Shown here: piece after piece, positions 5,761 through 52,528 of the stretch | Layout of the letters: each line of letters starts with the position of its first letter | Numbering within the stretch: the first letter of the stretch is position 1 | Notes under the pieces: model-generated | Told to the model about the DNA's origin: nothing | The model's database searches: none | The model's input: the letters and a program-made list of their open reading frames with translations, nothing else | Source: Chrysomallon squamiferum | Taxonomy: Eukaryota > Animalia > Mollusca | Reading direction: 5' to 3' | Assembly: GCA_012295275.1 (NCBI GenBank) | Contig: CM022670.1 | Location: 23,126,001 to 23,190,000, forward strand | DNA: 64,000 bases | Made by a program: the position numbers and the translations under genes

Positions 5761-5831
5761 GTATTTGTCAATGCGAACGACAACGCGATGATCAGGATTG
5801 AAATGATAGCCAGTACCTGAAATGGAGGATG
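5761..5831 (+). promoter_or_regulatory. Intronic inverted complement of the Kv2 3' splice site and S1 codons (candidate ECS)
   Basis: 5778-5831 pairs with 8382-8435 (51 Watson-Crick, 2 G:U, 1 U:U); 5766-5776 pairs with 8440-8450. Confidence 0.85.
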
Positions 5832-7357: not shown

Positions 7358-7746
7358 TTATTATAAAGTCATTAAATATTTTTTATTAATTCTAAATTTT
7401 TTATTTTTTGAGATTAATAAGGTTAAGAAATTTTTTTGAGTGTAGTGCATAATTGTTGAAATATATTAGTTTAAAATGTAGATTGTATACAAATGAAGCA
7501 ACGATAGATTAATTTCAATTATTGAGACTGTTTTTAATGCATTACTGTAATTAAATATGATAATGTTTTTTTGTTTTTTAAATTATTATTTAAACTTCAA
7601 CATATCATTTACAACTTATTCCATAAAAGTATATTTTGAATACTAAACTCTCTTTTTATTCCAGGAATGTGTAACTTTGTTGTTGTTTTCTTTTTCCAAT
7701 ATATTTTCATGATTGATTGCTTGCTTGCTTGGTTGTTTCTGCTTCC

Positions 7747-8058
7747 ATGAAAGCGTGTCATCATTCATATTTCCAGTACTCCTTTCTGCTTGTGCTTGAT
7801 CAAATTTGTAACAGCGCTTCTGTTTTACTGAAAGCTTGTGTGAACTCATTGGTGTTTGAAATGGCAAAAATATTTTTACTTTTTTCCTCTCCTTCGTAAA
7901 TATCGGAATCTGCAGCGCAACAACATGTATACTACCTTCATTTCCTGTACAGCACACATTACCTGCCTGAACATTTTCTTCTTACCTTCCTTCCATCGTG
8001 ATCGTAATCTTTCTTCTGCCTCTCCTAATAAGCAGCTGTCACTGTTGCAAATATGCTA
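7747..8058 (+). promoter_or_regulatory. Degenerate collinear inverted complement of the Kv2 pore/S6 region (candidate ECS)
   Basis: Nested helices 7782-7811/9089-9117, 7901-7925/9041-9065, 7946-7963/9012-9029 and 8046-8058/8875-8888. Confidence 0.7.
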
Positions 8059-8396
8059 TCATTGCTCTTATGAGATGTCTAAGTCGTAACTTCAATGAAA
8101 TAAATCTCTAACTATTCTTTTTTATCTGGTGTTTTTAAATTTGCTAATATACCTTGTCAGGTTCTCACCTTTTGTTGTCTGTATTGTAAAAACATTCTTA
8201 TATGTAAACCAAAAATGTTGATCAAAGATAATTTTTGAAATTAAAATTATATAAATATATAAATTATAACAATGATAAACCTCGTATGTATTTGTGAACC
8301 ACATCAGTTTGTGATGCTCTATACAATATGGTTAAGATAATATTGTCAAGTTGGGCTGATTCCTTATGGTTTTCACTTGTTCATCCTCCATTTCAG

Positions 8397-9473
8397 GTGC
8401 TGGCTATCATTTCAATCCTGTTCATCGTGTTGTCGACAATCGCATTGACATTAAATACCATTCCGCAACTCCAGGAGCGGACAAACCCCATTGAACCTGC
8501 GGATAACGCCCGTCTTGCAATTGTCGAAGCTGTGTGTATAGGGTGGTTCACACTGGAATATTTAGCCAGGTTTTGGGCGTCCCCAAATAAATGGAAATTT
8601 TTTAAAGGCCCATTGAACGTAATCGATCTGTTAGCCATTCTTCCGTATTTCATATCTTTAGGTTTGACTGAAACGAACAAAAGTACTACAGAACAGTTTC
8701 AAAATGTGCGCCGTGTTGTACAGATATTTCGAATTATGAGGATTCTAAGAATTCTAAAACTTGCTAGACACTCCACTGGTTTGCAATCCTTAGGCTACAC
8801 TTTGCAAAGAAGCTACAAGGAGTTAGGATTGCTACTAATGTTTCTTGCCATTTCAATCCTTTTATTTTCTAGTTTAGCATATTTTGCAGAAAAAGACGAA
8901 CCAGAAACAAAATATAAAAGTATCCCAGAGACATTCTGGTGGGCAGCAATCACCATGACCACTGTGGGATATGGTGATATTTATCCCAAAACTGGTCTTG
9001 GCAAAATTGTTGGTAGTGTGTGTTGTATATGTGGTGTTCTTGTTATTGCTTTGCCGATTCCTATAATAGTGAACAACTTTGCTGAGTTTTACAAAGATCA
9101 AATGCGCAGGGAGAAAGCGTTTAAAAGGCGAGAAGCCTTAGAAAAAGCTAAAAGGACTGGCAGTATCGTGTCCTTTCATTCCATCAACCTGCGTGACGCC
9201 TTTGCACGCAATGTTGACCTCATTGAGGTCAACTCCCAAGGTCACAAAGAAGAGGGTTCTGATGTGTGCAGTGAACGAGAAAAGTTCGTTTCCAGTCCTC
9301 ATTTTGGTACATCGAAAAACAACGAGACGCAGGATCAGCCCGCTCGGGAGACCGACAGCAGCGATGGCACCCAGTTTAATCTGACCAACAGCAGCACCAA
9401 CAACCTTCTGGATACAGACGAGGAATCACTCAACAGAATGGCATCGCAGCCATTGCTGAATGCTCAGACTCAG
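8397..9473 (+). CDS. Shab: Shab/Kv2 (KCNB) voltage-gated K+ channel, large internal exon S1-S6 plus proximal C-terminus
   Basis: Acceptor tttcag|GTG and donor CAG|gtataa, 1077 nt, phase 0/0. Encodes S4 [21 protein letters not shown], filter TTVGYGD, S6 ALPIPII (Kv2-type PIP) and [24 protein letters not shown]. Confidence 0.96.
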
Positions 9474-11118
9474 GTATAATGATGTAGTTTTTTTTTTTAA
9501 ATTAGCGGCAGCATAATTCAGACATAACTCAAACATCTCTCATGTAATAAATTTGGGGCTTTTATTTTATTTTTTTTTAATATTCTTTATATTTTATTAG
9601 TTCTACAAGCACAGTCTATAAATTTCTAACACAAACTATTGATTTAAGTCATATTAAATAATTTATTATCATCATCATCATCATCATTACAATCAAATTA
9701 TAAATATTTTATTTTTTTTTATTTAAGTTTATTTATGTATATAATTTTTGTTTTGCATTGGGGTTTATATGTCTTTTTTTTAAAAATACATTTTTTTATT
9801 TTTTTTATTTAAATGTCAAATAACAAAAGCACTAAACAAGGCTGCAGCTCTCTGTTTCTCTGTTAAAGCAGATGACTCACAAATGACATAATCAACATCA
9901 GATCACTTAAAGTATATCTCTATGGAACATTTTCAGTAACTGAGACTCCCTAATCCTCTGAACACAGATCTCACAATGTCTCACTGCTAGTTTCAGCTTT
10001 TAGGATGACTGAGTTAACATTTAGTTGAAATACTAGAAACCATACAATATATAATTATTAATTAATGTAAAATATTTATATGAAAGCCATTACAGTTAAA
10101 AATTATATCATATTACCTGATTATTATTAAAAATTAAATGATCCTATGGAATCAACTGTCCATAAATGAGCAGGAGAAAATAAATAAACCTACCAGTTTC
10201 TTTATAATGTAATATAACATTATATATTTTTCTTTCACAAACCTGCTGGTTCAGAAATTTCCAACCAAAATATACCTCCATCTGCCTCTGAAAATATGAA
10301 TAGATGAACTGAATAGAAACAGCAATATTAGCTAAATGTGTAAGATGTAGTTTTCTTTCTTTTCTTAGAAAAGGAATAATTTTAGTGGATTCCAGTTTTA
10401 CAGTTTAGTTTAAAAATGGGTGCTGTTGTCTTATATAATAATAAATTTATATAACAAGTAAGATCTTCTCCCAGTTTTTAATGTTATTAGATATTCTGTA
10501 TTGTTATTCTGAATATTCAAAAGATTTGCTAATTTGTGAAAGTATGCCGACTTGAACTGATAACTCACAATTAGGTTATTGTTTAATGGCTGTTATCTTT
10601 GATGCTTATTCGAAATAATGTACATTAGTTTTATTTTAAGTAAAAAAATCAATAAATTAAAAAAAAAAATTCACAGAAATTAAATCAGGATATAGAAAAT
10701 ATTATTAGAAAAATGGATTTTGTTGTAAATATACTTTTGAATTACCAGTACCATGTAGTGTTTTTTGACTAACATTTTATATGGAGGTGTATGTACACAA
10801 ACACACACCATTTTACCCCCAAATAATCTTCTATCATTGGACATAAACATTTACAATGATTCAGTTAGTTGTTTATGTTTTTAAAATAACAGTGTTTTTT
10901 CCAATTGCTGGAAAAATTATACAAGAATGAACATTTATTTATTAAACGATACCTTTCTACTAATGATTATCAAATATAAGGTTGTTGTGTAATGATGTTG
11001 TTACTGAAGAATATAGTTACTATCCACTTCACTGGCAACAGATAAACTTCTGTTTTTTAATATATTTATCATATATAGAAATATATCATGACCATTAATA
11101 AGTCAGTTTTGAGTCATG

Positions 11119-18133: not shown

Positions 18134-18824
18134 GGTAGGTATGACCCAGTGCTGCCAGATAAAAGTTGCATCGAAATGAAACAGCTTCACCGCCAAACGA
18201 GCTCAACTAGCACAGACACATATGCCAGCTGCACGACCCACCCCCAGGACAGTCCCTCCAATCTGGCTCAGCCCATCACCACTGACAGTCCCAAACACAA
18301 TCTCTATGTGAACCCTCTTGACGCCCCTTCTCGACTGTCTAACCCTCCTCAGTCACACTGCCCACCGTTTCATGGCCATTTCAACGATTTGCATGAGTAT
18401 TACAATAGCCAGCAGCAAGAGACTGGATTTAACAGACCGAGTGTTCAGTTCTGCCCTAACCAAGTTGTTCAGAAACTTGACAGTGGCTTGACGACGACAT
18501 GGGAGTGTGAGAATCTCGTACCCAATCCTTCACCGACAAGTGACTCGGGAGGTGTGGTGAGGCAGCTCCGCCCGACTCTGCCTCCTCCAAAGAAATCCAG
18601 CTTTAAACGATACAAATCATTATCCGTGGAGAAACATCCGCGGTTCGCAGATATCATTAATGAGAGAAACTGTTCTTCCACGGACAATCTCCATTCTCAG
18701 GAGTTCATAAAACCAAAGTTAAAGTTTCGAAAGGCGGTTTCGTTGGCAAATCGTCTGCATGCAAGCAGTCCATCAACAGGCAGGAGGCTTGCCAACTATC
18801 ACCTTATAGCAAACACAAAATCAG
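18134..18824 (+). CDS. Shab: Kv2 C-terminal exon containing a PRC/FFAT-like motif
   Basis: Acceptor tttag|GGT in phase 0 matches the previous exon; donor TCAG|gtaaga is phase 1. Open, GC-elevated, Ser/Pro-rich frame (ORF 18149-19036). Confidence 0.85.
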
Positions 18825-21558
18825 GTAAGACTTTAGTTATGTCCTTGAGAACCAATCAACAAGGCACAATGTGCATGATTTATGCTTCAGTTTATGTTAA
18901 TTTTAATTTATTAATGTGTGGTGGGAATTTATTAATATTATTATTACTCCCCTTGTCATTCCTGTATTCAACTGCACAGAAATCTTTGTTAGAGTTAAAA
19001 CACCCACACACAATCAATCTGCATGGTTTTAATTAGTTTTGGGTGGAGTATAAACACTCCTGGTTTTATAATTAATATTTCAAATTAAGGATAATACAGT
19101 ATTCATCTACTGTAATGAAATTAGATATTAAATCAAATAACATTCTGAATATTTTACTGAAATCATATCAGTCACTACTGATACACTGAATAGAAAATAT
19201 ATTGGGTTTTTTCTTTTCCTTTTTAAATCAATATGTCAACTACATAATGTAATAATTTACTCTAAGACATTACTAATAGATTTTGTCTTTGTCTGATGGT
19301 TTGTATTCAAGTTAGGTCTTAATAACTTAAGTCTCTAGCTCAACCAAGACCATAAAATACACTCTGTTAACAGTATTCCTCACTCTGCTGGAAAAAGTAT
19401 ATAAAGATTTTTTTGCTCTTAATAATTAAGATTAGTCTTAGAGATGATGACAGCAGGATTCCTGTCTTAGATTTTATCACTGCAGCAGTTCTTATCAAAT
19501 AAAAATATGATGTGGTCTTGTTCAAATCATTTTTTTGGTCTTTTTTGAAATTGTTTTCTAATGATTCATATCAAATATATATAAATACTTATTAATACTA
19601 CTACAAATACTACTACTGATAAGTAAACTTGTGTGCATTATTATCTTAAAACATCACTTGACAAGATAGCCACATTTAAATATTCCACTAAATACTATTT
19701 ATACACAATAGACATATATCAGTATGAAATTCTGCACAACATTAAACCGTGTATGGTATTTTCTTAAATTATTTATTTGTTAATTAAATCATTATCAAAT
19801 TACAGATTCCGGAAACAATTTTACAGCCAAATAAAAATTTGTTTTTATGTTTAAGTAAGAAAACAGTTTCAAACGTTTTTTTTTTTAAATTCTCTCAGTT
19901 CTATCAAATCATAATTTTATAATTTTTTAAAATAATTATTGATTATCAAACAAAACAGTCCATAACCTTAAAACAACAACAACAAACAAACAAAACCTCT
20001 TTGAAGAAACACCAGACTATTTATTCTATTGAGAAAAACAGATTTTCTAGACTTTCCAAATATTGGTGCCATTATCACTTTTTCTATGCTATGAAACACT
20101 TCACTAAGCATCCAAAACCACAACAAGCAGGCAGCACAATTTCCTTAATTCCACATTTGCATCAGTTTCTAGTTCTCAAAGATGGGTAGCTTTTCTGCAC
20201 CATTAAACAAAATCCATATGTCTAAATGCCAGAAGAAACTGTCAAAACACTGGTAACATGATCTATGGATTTATGAAATATTAATAAATCACATTCATCT
20301 AATTCTTTATTCTAAAATTTATTTTTGGAAATTAACTTTGTTTTCTTTCTTTTCCAAACAAGAATAGAAAAAAAAAAAAAAAAAAGAATACAAAATTTAA
20401 TGATTTGTGAAATTGTTCCAAAATTAATTCATGATGAAAGAATAGTGAAATGAAGAAGAAGAAAAAAATATTATGAACATACATACTTTAATAAATGACA
20501 GAGATGACAAATATTGACTCTTTTTTTGTTACATGTAATTTAAATTTTAAATAGCCAAGTTGAAAATGTTAAAAAAAAATTTAAAAAAATAAAAATAAAA
20601 CAATAAAAAAAATATTGAAAATAATAAATAAATAAATAAATAAGTAAATAAATAAATAAATAAATAATTAAACAATTTGCATTTTGACATTTCCAAATTC
20701 ATTCAGTGGATTATTCATATTATTTTTATTATAGATATATATGTATGTATAATTCATTTAGCATTAAATTTAATCGTTTGTTTAGTTCAGATTTTAAAAA
20801 CATCAGTATTAACAAAATGAGCTGATTTATCTATTCCTTTATTTCTTGTTTAATAGGAAATAATTCAGTTTCTTTTGTTAAATTTGGAAATCTATGAAAT
20901 TTTCATAATATTATTTTATTTTATTTTATTTAAATATCTACTTCATGCGACCAGTAACACGTTTTTAAAACATATTTTACATAGGACAAATGCAATCTGA
21001 ATTTTGTCCATTCAAAAATATATATTATCTTGTATTGTACAAAAAAAAAAATGGAGGACATTAAATAACAATAACAACAACATTACTGCTAAAAAAGTTC
21101 CTTTCATTTAAAAAAAAAAAAAAAATTATTTATATAAATCTCTTTCTCTGTGTTACACAACCTGTAAAAAAGAACCATTATGAAAAAGATAGTTCCTTTA
21201 TGAAGATTACAAAACAGAATTAAGTTCTAAAGAGTGGTCACAAGTGAAATCATGTAGAAAATAATTACAAGAGAATCTGAATTACTAATTTCTTAATGTT
21301 TTTCATTTGACCTGAATCATTATATACTTATCTAAAAATTTAAACAAGATCCTTTGTTTAGCTTTCCTTTTTCTGTTCTATTTAAAATAATTATGTAAAG
21401 AATATATATTATTTAACAGGAGACATAAAATGAACTACATTTTGTGGACTAATGTTGACCATTAATTCATTCATCCACAACTCTGATATCACACTTAGTT
21501 TCCAAACTTTAGTTCCCACTCCAGGGTTAAACTGCACGTTTGATGTAATTAGATTTTT

Positions 21559-21591
<33 letters not shown>

Positions 21592-24353
21592 CATCATTAA
21601 CTTTGCATTCCTCACCAAATTATCTTGCAGATGAAACTTTTCTACTCAACTGAAGAGGTGAGTGGTGTAATTCGCAAGGAAGGGCGCTTCATGTAATGAC
21701 AGAGCACATGCACTGGTGTGACCTGCACAAGAGCAAGTAGTAAAAAAATTCCCCCAACCCAAAATGGAGCACCAGCTAATAAATTAACTTTTATTTCATT
21801 TTTTTTTTTTTAAACAAAAAAACAAAACAAAAAAACATTATATGTAATCATAATTGCATGTAAAACAAATGTATGTGTAAATCATGGTATATGTATGCAT
21901 ATATACCATGTTAAGGACAAATTAACTAATTTTTCATAATAAACAAATACTTTTACAAACAAAACTATATTGACATAAGCTCTGCAGTTCACCAGGGTAT
22001 TTTGGCTTGTTTCAAACTCCTGCGAACTAAATGTGCTTTTGGCTTCATTCGTCTAGTGTACTGGTCAAGCTGTAGTATGCCTTGTGAATATTCATGGGCT
22101 TTTTTTTACATCACAGTTGCGCTCCGGTTCATTGTTGTAGTTCTTTAGAACACCCCTGCCCACCTCCCCCTCTCTGCTTGACCATGTCTTTCCCTCACTT
22201 CCACAGCCGTTCACCTCTGCTTTTGTGATGGTCACACCAGTCCAGCGGTCCACCTCCCCTGTCCACCCGCCCAGCCAGTCCACCCTGACACCATACTTGC
22301 TTTACCACTAATGTCTTATATATATGTAGTTAATATAATACATTTTCAAAAATGATTATTAATTGCTGATCATTGATGTTATTGTATTCTGAAAAACGGA
22401 AATATAATAAAGTCATTTGTATCAGAAAAGAACAGAGCTGACATTAAGTAAGCTAAATTCATAATGAGAGCATTTCTCATGTTTAAAAATTGTTAAATTA
22501 CTAACATGAGTGAAATAGATTAACATGATGACAAATCCAGAAAAAGTTAATATAAAAATTTAATTCAAAGAAAAATAAATTTGGTGTGAATTATAAAAAA
22601 GTTTTAAATCATTGAACACTTGAATTCAATTTCTCAATTATTAATTATCATTTTTTAATTTGCATAGTAATAAAAGAAATGTAGCTATGCTAAGTAGTGC
22701 AGTTTTGTGTAGTGTTGCTTAAAATAATTAAAATAAAAACAAACAGTATTCCACTTTTCAGTACTTTATGACTTTGGACATCGATGGTGGGTCAGACACA
22801 AATTATTAAATAAAATATTTGTTATTCACAAACTAAAATAGATATATTAAATTAATAGTGCTTCCTTTGCTTTGAAAAAACATTCCGCATAGAATGAGAG
22901 ATCTATCACATTGATTCAGATATTTGACTTCAGCAAATTAGCATTTTTATACATAATCTTTCAGCAGACTTTTTATGTATAATTTCATATTCATTCAACA
23001 AGATAATCTAATATCCTTTCTTCATTTTCTGTTTTTTTTCTGTTACTTTTCAATTTTCTTAATTTTAGAAACTTTGCAAATGTATTAAGTAAATAATACA
23101 TGGGGATCAAACAGATATTTAGCAGTTTTTATGTTTGTAAAAACAATTAGTTTAATTATTTTCTTTAATAAGGCATTCAGTGTTTTAGAATAATGCAAAA
23201 TAACTATGAGCAACAGGTTTGTAAAACTTTAAAACAAATTTATTTATTTATGTATTTATTTATTTATTATATTTTTTATGCATGTTATGCAAATTCAGTG
23301 TACATGTTTCTTACTCTGTTGAAACTATAATTAATTTTTTCTGTACTGACTATCTTAATACTAGGAATTTTGTTTTTAGTGTAAAGTTATCTCAAGATTG
23401 TCAGGAATCTAGTTTGGCCACAGATGGTTAATCAAAAACTGAAATCTCTTACTGCTAACTGATAGAAACACCTTGCAGAGTGACATCAGCTTATCAGCAT
23501 AGTACAAATTCATATATTCTGCAATTAATAATAGTTGTCAGTACAAATTAATTCACAGTTTTGTTAAATAATCATTCAATCTTTGACAAGTGGTAAAAAT
23601 GTTTATCATTTACATTGAATTAACATCTCATTTTCTTTATTATTAATTGCACGTTTGAGTTGATACAAATTGTACCAGATCCTCTGAGACTGAAAATGTT
23701 GTACCTGTTCTGGCCTAACATCTTATGTCCCTTCCTTTTTGTCCATCCTCTCATCTTCATTGGTATTAACAAGGTGAAGGAGGAATTCCACAAAATGTAT
23801 TTCTGTCATAAAGTTATTGTACCTTTTGCTATATGAAATATTTGGTGTCTGTTGTTTAAAGCAATGATGTTGTTTATGAATGTACTTACTTGAAATTTTT
23901 CTTCAGATTAAAAACAAAACGGAAGAAAAATAAAGAAACTTAGAATCATTTCGCATAATTTAAATGACTGTATTTGTTTATTTTGATTAAATCATATATA
24001 TATATATTTAAATTTTAAAAATATTTTTTTTTGTTTTGTTGCAGTAATAATTTTTTTGAAGACTTGTTTTATTGAAGTTTTAATTTTATATCATATATTA
24101 TATATACATATATAATTTAATGATTATTAAAATTATTACAGTTTTGTATCTCTGGAAATTGAGCTTAATCTGATATCTTCATTTTAACTAGAAATATTTA
24201 TAATTTAATATACATATCACAGTATTTGTTTGACATTTATGTCACAGTTTTTTTTTATCATTGCTTTAAAAAATAACTAATAATAAGAATAATAATACAA
24301 AAAATATTTAACATTACTTGTCAGTTAAATCTCATTTCTTTGTTTATTTACAG

Positions 24354-25153
24354 GTTCTCTACCAAACAGCAGACACAACTTGGACCAGGTAAAACACGAA
24401 AAGCTGTCTCCTGTCCAGCGATCTAGTCCATGTCTGTTTGAACCTTCACCTGCTAAAAAAAGATCTATTTCAAAAAGAGATGCTTATGACTGTGAAGAAA
24501 CTGAGAACCTTCTTCTGGCTGCTTGCAGCCACGGTGAGTGTCCAGAGGTCACGCTTTCTGCCCGGAATGGAACTATTTGTGATAACAGTATATACTCTAA
24601 TTCAAAACTGCAGTACCCGAACAGTATCCCCAAACAGACTGCCACGCAATCAGGTGACCAAATTCAACCCACCACTCTAAAGTTCACGAACATCGAAGGT
24701 CCTGAGGATGACCATCAGCTGTTCTCACTGGGCAGTCCTGATCGATCAGAAGAGGACGTTGAGTTCAGTGACAGCATGGCGAATCATGCCAAAAACACCT
24801 TGCTGTGGAAAGCCAATCGTACGAGGCCGATGACATCACCAATGTACGACACAAGCCCGTCAGACAATTTGGAAAATGATGACAGTCTAATTTATTCAAA
24901 TTCTGCTGATTATTCTGCTTTCTCAGACTCCAGTCTTTCTGACCCAAATCTTCTGCGGTCTTCCCCATCAAGTGACCTGGTCAGTCGAACTGGGGGGAGT
25001 CGAACAAGTGGAGAGGACCACACAGTGAGTGTGTATGACACAGCTGAATCAGGGCCTCCAGACAGTGATTCTAACATGGACAGCACTGTTAATGTGATTT
25101 CCTCAGACGACAGTAGAGATCTGACTATAGTGTTTCCTGATTCTAGTGGATAG
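24354..25153 (+). CDS. Shab: Kv2 terminal coding exon
   Basis: Acceptor tttacag|GT completes the phase-1 Gly codon and continues in the frame of ORF 24380-25153 to TAG. Ser/Asp-rich tail. Confidence 0.8.
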
Positions 25154-50530: not shown

Positions 50531-50718
50531 ATTTGTTTAGAAGTAGTTTCGTATCTTCTAAGATAATAACTTTTTAAAAGAAGATTTCAATAAAAATAGA
50601 CGAAATTATATATTTATTATTATTATATATGTATATACATTATATTAAAATGTATTAGCTATTATTAATAAATATTATCATACGAAACGATAATTATTGA
50701 CTTCACAAATTTTGCAAG
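50531..50718. promoter_or_regulatory. Shared divergent promoter and 5' UTRs of UBE2W and BPNT2
   Basis: 188 bp between divergent ATGs. Confidence 0.7.
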
Positions 50719-51042
50719 ATGGCACCAGTGAATGTCCGCTTGAATCCTTTTGGGATGGTGATATTTGTTTTAGCTACATTATGCATATTGTTTTATTTGT
50801 TTGGTCTTCCATGGTTTTTTCCAGGAGAGCCTCGGGTCAGTATGAGAGAACTGTTGTCAGTCAGCATCGTGTTAGCACAGCGAGGTGGCATTATTGTACG
50901 CGAAATTGCGAAGAACCATACACTCAATGCAAAACAAAAAGGACTGACTGACGAAGGAAAGAAAGAATTATTGACAACAGGAGATATGGAATCACACAAA
51001 GCTATATATTATGGATTCGCAAAGGCGTACCCAGGAATGCAG
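50719..51042 (+). CDS. BPNT2: Golgi PAP phosphatase (IMPAD1/gPAPP) exon 1
   Basis: MAPVNVRLNPFG plus hydrophobic signal anchor, KGLTDEGKKELLTTGDMESH; donor CAG|gtaata. Confidence 0.93.
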
Positions 51043-51151
51043 GTAATAAATTATCCAATAAATTAAATAGGAAGTTATAGAATTAATTATTCTATATTAT
51101 ATATAAAATCAAACCCAAAGTGAAAGTTATGAAACTATTAAAGCTAAACAG

Positions 51152-51186
<35 letters not shown>

Positions 51187-51287
51187 AGAGAGAGTAAAGT
51201 TGGATGGCAAGATATGAAAAGAAGGATTTAGAATATTATCAAAAGAGGGTAGCAAGAACACTGCAAAATTAATAATTTACATTTTAG

Positions 51288-51453
51288 GTAATTTCTGAAG
51301 AACATGACACTGAACCTATAAGTTTGTCAGCTATTCCTGATGTTAACAAGAAACTTGAAGAAGTTCAGAATATTATAAAAAGTGATCAGTCTATTCCAAT
51401 GAAGTCCATTTCAGTCTGGGTGGACCCACTTGATGCCACTCAGGAATATACAG
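51288..51453 (+). CDS. BPNT2: BPNT2 exon 2
   Basis: VISEEHD...VWVDPLDATQEYT, the IMPase metal-binding motifs. Confidence 0.95.
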
Positions 51454-51907
51454 GTAATAAGTGAAAGGGAAAAACACTGTTCTTTATGTGTTCAGTTGGA
51501 GGATTTAATGATACAAAGTACTTAAATAATTTTTTAAATGGGGAAAAGAAAAATAATAATAAAAAATAAAGAAAAATAAATAAATAAAACAAAAAGTAAA
51601 ATAAAAAGTAAATAAAATAAATACACAATCAGAATAAAATGGTACAAAATGTATACTTTAAGTCTTTATATATTTTTACAACAGTAAGCTGTTTTGAAAA
51701 GCTTATCCAGTTAAAAATATAGCTTATGTCATAATCTAGAAAATTATTTCTAAAATGTTTATTATTCAGAATTATTGTGAATAATGAAAACAGTTTATTA
51801 TAACCTTATTTATATTTAATTATCCTTTGTTTTGACAACCCTGTTGTAAATTTTTAATTCAACTAATAATTTTTATTTTAGAGTTATAAATATGTTTACA
51901 CCTTCTT

Positions 51908-51942
<35 letters not shown>

Positions 51943-51954
51943 TTTTATTTTCAG

Positions 51955-52053
51955 AGGGATTATATCAATATGTAACAACAATGGTGTGCATTGTGGTTAA
52001 TGGAGAACCAACAATTGGAGTTATTCACAAACCTTTTTCAAATGGAGAAACAG
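51955..52053 (+). CDS. BPNT2: BPNT2 exon 3
   Basis: [27 protein letters not shown]; phase 1/1. Confidence 0.93.
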
Positions 52054-52528
52054 GTATTTGTATTTTTCTCTTTATAGTTAGTTACATGATATTTCCATCA
52101 TATGCTTTACAAATATTGTTGTACATTACTTTTAAATGTGGAGCAAGCAGAGCTGAACAAAAATCTCGTCTCTTTTTGTTTCAATATTTTGAGTAATTCA
52201 TTTTAGACAAATTGCCTGGGGTGTTGTCTTATCAATCAATAAAAGAGAGGCAGCAGCTGGTGTCCTCAGATATCATCATTTTATACAAAGGATACACTCT
52301 ATGAGAAATAACAACTGTTAATTATAAAATCAATTAACACTTAATATAATACTTATTCATATATATGTACACACACACAAACAAATGTATACATGAACAT
52401 GCATACATAGAAACAGAGAGACATGAATACAGACATACATATACACACTTTGATGACTGAAATTTTTTGATGTTTTTGGATTTATATATCCTAAATATAA
52501 TCTTATTTTCTTTACATTGTATTTCCAG

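Follow-up and report, generated by a model that had tools for sequence, protein, structure and literature searches.

The nearest described counterpart of the site considered here is the I/V editing site of Shab/Kv2 channels (fly I681V, bumblebee I533V, squid I597V/I579V, and also octopus and cuttlefish), which is the same in family, residue and A-to-G change. The site is given as edited in bee, fly and four coleoids in PMC6453909, where it is called the sole recoding site common to metazoans, and it is presented as a possible exception to the independent origins of recoding in PMC9989829. In supplement 6 of the latter (Zhang 2023), as judged from all 16 'Shab' entries and 30 of the 44 Aplysia rows, Shab I/V editing appears in two flies, an ant and octopus only; Aplysia and oyster, for which it is not listed there, were sampled as whole bodies. 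In cephalopod Kv2, the I/V edit alters the closing rate (PMC5705066; bioRxiv 10.1101/714394). PMC2606942 (2009) described the RNA structure behind squid Kv2 editing as unknown.

Other systems bear a more partial likeness. Mammalian Kv1.1 (KCNA1) is edited at I400V, the homologous cavity residue, which is equated with Shaker I470V, and the edit there speeds recovery from inactivation (PMC3265383). Kv1.1 belongs to another subfamily, however, and its intronless gene uses an exonic hairpin (PMC2606942), in contrast to the long-range intron-exon duplex predicted below for the snail. Drosophila Shaker e2/e3 resembles the snail locus in that a Kv channel exon undergoing editing is preceded by conserved intronic arms (PMC2606942). 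These arms serve another gene and other sites, and are described in that source as kept in 12 Drosophila and absent from mosquito and bee, whereas the snail arm can be traced from gastropod to bivalve and into further lineages. In Drosophila paralytic, an ECS (editing-site complementary sequence) is accompanied by a DCS (donor-site complementary sequence), a further arm that masks a splice site and modulates editing (PMC4299485). The snail locus also has two arms; while the second arm of paralytic covers a donor, that of the snail covers an acceptor, is near-perfect over 54–69 bp and is seen in this species only.

The known I/V sites of Shab/Kv2 come from insects and coleoid cephalopods, whereas the present one lies in a gastropod, Chrysomallon squamiferum. 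No report of an intronic ECS in Kv2/Shab or of a gastropod I/V edit was found in the accessible literature, subscription papers being mostly outside reach. The site itself is known already; what appears to be new is its guide in the intron, its likely editing in a gastropod and the occurrence of the arm in more than one molluscan class, with a possible extension to pancrustaceans.

The Kv2 gene and the predicted intron-S6 duplex

The window is the whole 64-kb stretch of C. squamiferum DNA that was analyzed. RNA of the species was available as contigs from four runs of one study (X1 to X4), and these contigs were aligned to positions 7400–9500 of the window. The exon and the elements of the predicted duplex are as follows.

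8397–9473, + strand: Kv2/Shab exon encoding S1–S6 and the proximal C terminus, with an AG acceptor at 8395–8396 and a GT donor at 9474–9475
7893–7974, + strand: predicted ECS for S6, located in the intron that precedes the S1–S6 exon, 423–504 nt before the acceptor
7921, + strand: orphan C, which forms an A:C mismatch opposite A9045
9003–9073, + strand: exonic strand of the duplex, comprising the end of the pore loop and S6
9045, + strand: likely A-to-I site, changing ATT (Ile) to GTT (Val)
9015, + strand: candidate Ser/Gly site at the position of fly T671A and bee S523G, read as A in X1, X2 and X3

The spliced ends of the exon are seen in RNA contigs of X1, X2 and X4. The top PDB match of the exon protein was Kv2.1 (E 3.5e-135, versus 1e-77 for Kv1 chimeras), and the nearest named proteins were those of Haliotis (84%), Patella (81%) and Octopus (74%). 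The gene tree nests snail Kv2 within Gastropoda with a support of 100/98. By these sequence comparisons, the gene is a gastropod Kv2/Shab orthologue. Further downstream, an X2 contig joins 9473 to 17162, and long open frames at 18134–19036 and 24329–25153 resemble C-terminal Kv2 exons. The open frames at 50701–52196 (+ strand) belong to a different gene, which we take to encode an inositol-monophosphatase-family (IMPAD1-like) protein. Within the intron, a 33-nt piece (7558–7590) has, with the same flank, an approximately 91% match in unrelated contigs of all four runs and is probably a dispersed repeat.

Residue mapping places the Ile encoded at 9045 (query Ile 31) at Shaker 470 and Kv1.2 402, which bears out the homology to the Kv1.1 site that the first-pass annotation had proposed. 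The numbering given in that annotation also proved accurate: in P0269, the squid Kv2 cDNA protein, residue 597 is indeed Val, and the two further established editing positions are occupied by Cys and Gly; fly I681V and T671A lie 30 nt apart (PMC6453909, Table 2), the same spacing as that between 9015 and 9045. Of 240 homologues, 233 have Ile at the site; the seven with Val do not include any of molluscan appearance. Val was found in none of the 32 listed bivalve cluster members that cover S6, many of which are genome-derived, and among the 23 members of the gastropod clusters its sole occurrence was in a 58-aa fragment whose origin is doubtful.

Of the remaining known Shab/Kv2 sites, the Tyr/Cys (A8983) and S/G positions of the snail read A in all covering contigs, which in the case of A8983 means all four runs and refers to the majority base that a contig records; the neighboring synonymous Val site cannot be edited in the snail, where the codon is GTT. 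All 15 listed Haliotis Kv2 proteins of the P0001 cluster have Ala, not Tyr, at the Y/C editing position, and the Y/C site is therefore lost there.

The complementarity from which the annotation started was reproduced exactly. In helix I, 7901–7925 pairs with 9041–9065 through 20 Watson-Crick pairs and one G:U pair out of 25 positions, and C7921 faces A9045, the first base of the ATT (Ile) codon in GVLV-I-ALP, as an A:C mismatch. In helix II, 7946–7963 pairs with 9012–9029 at 18 of 18 positions (15 Watson-Crick and three G:U); this helix contains A9015, which is found in a UAG context within an AGT (Ser) codon. The two helices are collinear within the ECS and are separated by a 10-nt bulge at 7936–7945. 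Taken together, 7893–7974 and 9003–9073 form one collinear duplex with approximately 55 inter-strand pairs and an energy of −59.7 kcal/mol. The context of A9045 is U-A-U opposite C7921. A context favored by ADAR has an A:C mismatch and a 5' U, with no 5' G.

When helix I was extended to 7893–7935/9031–9073, its ungapped score of 50.5 was reached by none of 200 dinucleotide shuffles of the exon (maximum 49.0). Helix II alone (score 41) is not significant, as 20.5% of exon dinucleotide shuffles reach 41, and it thus counts only through its collinearity with helix I. With S6 as the target, the arm ranked first among 2,509 sense and 2,509 antisense 100-nt windows taken across the whole 64 kb, where the background was −24.8 ± 5.9 kcal/mol and the runners-up scored −49.2 (sense) and −50.3 (antisense). 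The S6 arm does not occur as a repeat within the window.

In a contiguous 1,271-nt fold of the pre-mRNA, 12 of the 13 duplex pairs tested had a probability (P) of 0.86–1.00, the terminal pair 7903–9063 having a P of 0.28. A9045 is unpaired in this predicted fold, and A9015 (with U7960) and A9027 are both A-U paired. A third arm at 2599–2623, directed at the pore helix (8924–8948, over the position of fly T643), was discarded, as its score was attained by 35.5% of shuffles and it has no counterpart in eight other loci.

The upstream arm in other Kv2 loci

A scan of metagenome contigs provided 76 Kv2 loci with flanks (identified here by L numbers), which made up 51 sequence groups when the window was included. 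Thirty-three groups had at least 900 nt upstream of the exon, and the other 18 were left out for having less than 900 nt. An upstream arm beat all 30 codon shuffles and all eight other exon tiles in 10 of the 33. A stricter null, in which the protein sequence is preserved (100 synonymous recodings each, 15 groups), left eight groups with 0/100 recodings matching, namely the window, L001, L002, L012, L014, L015, L016 and L036. The upstream S6 arm in these eight of 33 groups had z values of 4.8–10.0. All eight carry the arm in an intron that ends at the same codon, and the base facing the site lies 476–1,240 nt before the acceptor, or 3,206 nt in the case of L036.

The gene tree assigns L001 and L002 to the bivalves, makes L036 the sister of the copepod Caligus and places L016 beside insects (support 86). 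L012, L014 and L015 group together in an unplaced clade that falls outside the molluscs and arthropods sampled. The annotation had assigned the editing of A9045 to an ECS in the upstream intron; this is supported by the conservation of the arm in seven other lineages and by a G-reading contig of run X1 that is discussed below.

Arms that failed the stricter null were dropped. Those of the insect-like L008 (6/100 recodings matched) and of L075 (7/100) had passed the first screen, and L052 (23/100) and L060 (2/100) had both failed it. Insect-like loci, from a group in which editing is known, show no robust arm and a weak signal, as judged from L008 with up to 6 kb upstream and L013 with 1.4 kb (86/100). 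No arm was found in 23 of the 33 groups, which include the vertebrate-like L020 and L025; many of these are short-flanked, divergent paralogues or Val-encoding. Val is encoded in DNA at the site (GTC, GTG or GTT) in L019, L022, L023, L024, L026, L063, L064, L075 and L076. Seven Val-encoding groups had enough flank for the analysis and showed no robust arm, as would be expected had the edit become fixed in the genome and the ECS disappeared. In their flanks, L036, L037, L040, L028, L033, L034 and L039 carry a further direct copy of the S6 region (reverse-complement control scores 77.5–102), which suggests tandem Kv2 paralogues or duplicated exons.

For a comparison of individual base pairs, helix I was aligned collinearly in nine loci, each anchored on its own best pairing, and the resulting tables lean towards the structure. 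A MAFFT alignment of the arms was unreliable, and automatic anchoring was non-collinear for helix I of L001/L002 and for helix II of the arthropods. The pair tables show positions −3 to +4 preserved in almost every cell, with U:U at +2 in the bivalves. Two-sided changes are found at −1 (U-A versus C-G in pancrustacean-like loci) and at −4 (four pair types). Opposite the site, the window, L012, L014, L015 and L016 carry C, and L001, L002, L036 and L008 carry U. The 17-mer on the exonic strand of helix II (9015–9031) is identical in six loci, the window and five others, which represent gastropod, bivalve and the unplaced clade; helix II is not common to the arthropod-like loci. Across seven loci, codons −10 to +1 are invariant at 5 of 11 positions versus 3 of 93 elsewhere (Fisher p 2.4e-4), where the codon window was chosen after the alignment had been seen and the loci are related.

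One pair of contigs differs at the site itself. L016 and L017 are identical over approximately 1,290 nt except for G/A at the site base and one T/C, and the L016 arm has C opposite the site. The upstream intron is retained in both contigs; both also continue past the point at which the related L018 becomes non-coding, and they diverge abruptly further down. From these sequence features, we infer that L016 and L017 are RNA-derived. At the fly T643 position of the pore helix, L016 (2251–2253) and L017 have GCC (Ala) and L018 has ACC (Thr). T643A is a fly Shab editing site, and the equivalent position is possibly a second edited site in the arthropod-like lineage of L016/L017.

RNA contigs and alternative explanations

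The genome window reads A at 9045. Three of the four runs cover this position: the contig of X1 (depth 15.1) reads G, and those of X2 and X3 read A, the position being the fourth base from the contig end in X2. X4 has no cover there. As contigs keep the majority base only, low-level editing is invisible in them. The exon holds 231 A positions at which A>G would be protein-changing. Of seven exonic differences listed between the RNA and the window, only 9045 alters the protein; the other six (8519, 8579, 8786, 8897, 9353 and 9428) are synonymous changes in the third position.

The earlier expectation of editing at several predicted sites is thus partly supported. The G at 9045 in X1 agrees with it, but 9015 and 9027 read A in all three covering runs and so far lack support. 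Neither of the latter is refuted by this result, since minority variants are lost from contigs and editing of the S/G site in bee and fly reaches only 12–31% (PMC6453909, Table 2).

Cover of the intron and the exon ends is uneven. X1 has no contig past the donor at 9473 though one crosses the acceptor, and the contigs of X2 break at 9033–9042; both were treated as gaps in cover and given no weight as evidence. The contig that crosses the acceptor in X1 (record 3, 7761–8425) spans intron into exon and may be pre-mRNA or DNA. It covers the S6 arm with one change, G7915A, which turns a G:U pair into an A-U pair; the support that this gives to the helix is weak because 16 of the 75 possible changes in 7901–7925 also keep the energy.

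A rival reading is that the duplex is real and conserved, serving splicing control or giving only low-level editing, while the G in X1 is a germline A/G polymorphism. The G is confined to one of three covering runs, the six synonymous differences among the four runs attest to variation, and Val at the site is genomic in some hemipterans (PMC10937787). Against this stand the facts that the sole listed protein-changing variant in 1,077 nt falls on a base that had been named beforehand, with the A>G sign, and that the same G/A split is found at the same base in L016/L017. Given the match on that base and the presence of Ile in 233 of 240 homologues, a rough estimate puts the chance of a SNP at about a tenth, and a polymorphism is considered improbable.

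That the complementarity arose by chance or by a recent inverted duplication, with no function, might be argued from the fraction of shuffles that match helix II alone (20.5%) and from the young inverted copy at 5766–5831 nearby, by which such copies are seen to arise in this intron; however, the arm recurs in the same intron of seven other lineages, the paired codons are frozen (p 2.4e-4) and the S6 arm is not a repeat in the window, so that for the S6 arm this explanation is largely refuted and scarcely credible. A local exonic hairpin or some other element could also direct genuine editing and leave the intronic arm incidental, as Kv1.1 uses an exonic hairpin (PMC2606942), a hairpin has been drawn for the hemipteran Shab S/G site (PMC10937787) and the insect-like L008 and L013 lack a robust arm, but in the contiguous fold S6 is paired to the intron, at P near 1, rather than to nearby sequence, which renders this very unlikely.

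Second arm, mechanism and origin

The intron contains another arm, which is directed at the splice acceptor.

5766–5831, + strand: second intronic arm, a near-perfect inverted copy of 8382–8450
8382–8450, + strand: acceptor and S1 strand, containing the acceptor A8395 and four Ile codons (A8406, A8409, A8415 and A8424)

Between 5778–5831 and 8382–8435 there are 51 Watson-Crick and two G:U pairs out of 54, extending to approximately 69 nt, and this pairing, which the first-pass annotation does not mention, is stronger than either of the S6 helices. It covers the pyrimidine tract, the AG acceptor and the start of S1, and it crosses the S6 duplex in a pseudoknot order. The sequence of the arm is unchanged in X1 record 5. 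No acceptor-covering arm was found in 12 other loci with 1.1–8 kb upstream, and the arm, seen in this species only, is therefore probably a young inverted copy and is rejected as a general part of the system. Chance or a recent inverted duplication without function remains the simplest reading of this second arm. If it does act, it might slow the removal of the ECS-bearing intron by hiding its acceptor, by analogy with the DCS of paralytic; alternatively, it could attract editing of S1. Further differences, beyond the seven listed above, lie near contig ends in this area, with three in X4 record 16 (8396–8453), none in X4 record 17 (8397–8775) and four in X3 record 12 (8404–8822). They may be clustered S1 edits under the 54-bp arm.

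For the S6 arm, the rare complementarity, the orphan C, the residue homology, one contig with G, the recurrence of the arm and the frozen synonymous codons together argue that 7893–7974 is likely an ECS. It very probably lets an ADAR convert the S6 codon from Ile to Val in a fraction of the transcripts. Once S6 has been transcribed, the intron arm would pair with it before the upstream intron is spliced, and an ADAR, conceivably ADAR2-like, would deaminate A9045 in the U-A-U/C mismatch. The G in X1 would then represent inosine rather than a genomic allele. The ribosome would read Val at the cavity-lining position, and the Val form might change closing kinetics as it does in cephalopod Kv2.

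The first-pass annotation described the site as convergently edited. This description holds for mammalian Kv1.1, with its exonic hairpin and independent origin; it is doubtful within protostome Kv2, where an arm in the same intron recurs. A tentative reading, held with somewhat less than even confidence, is that the Kv2/Shab S6 edit and its upstream-intron ECS descend from a protostome ancestor and have come down to gastropods, bivalves, other spiralians and pancrustaceans. A duplex inherited from the protostome ancestor would have been kept for more than half a billion years. If this is true, the match between insects and cephalopods would be one of inheritance, not convergence, and the arm would be the oldest traceable cis-element for mRNA recoding. 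The arthropod arms may instead have arisen in parallel. With a defined 80-nt intronic arm and its orphan C in hand, the question of convergence versus descent becomes testable. If the arm is an ECS, snails and clams, commonly regarded as low-editing outgroups to the coleoids, should likewise show site-selective recoding in neural tissue.
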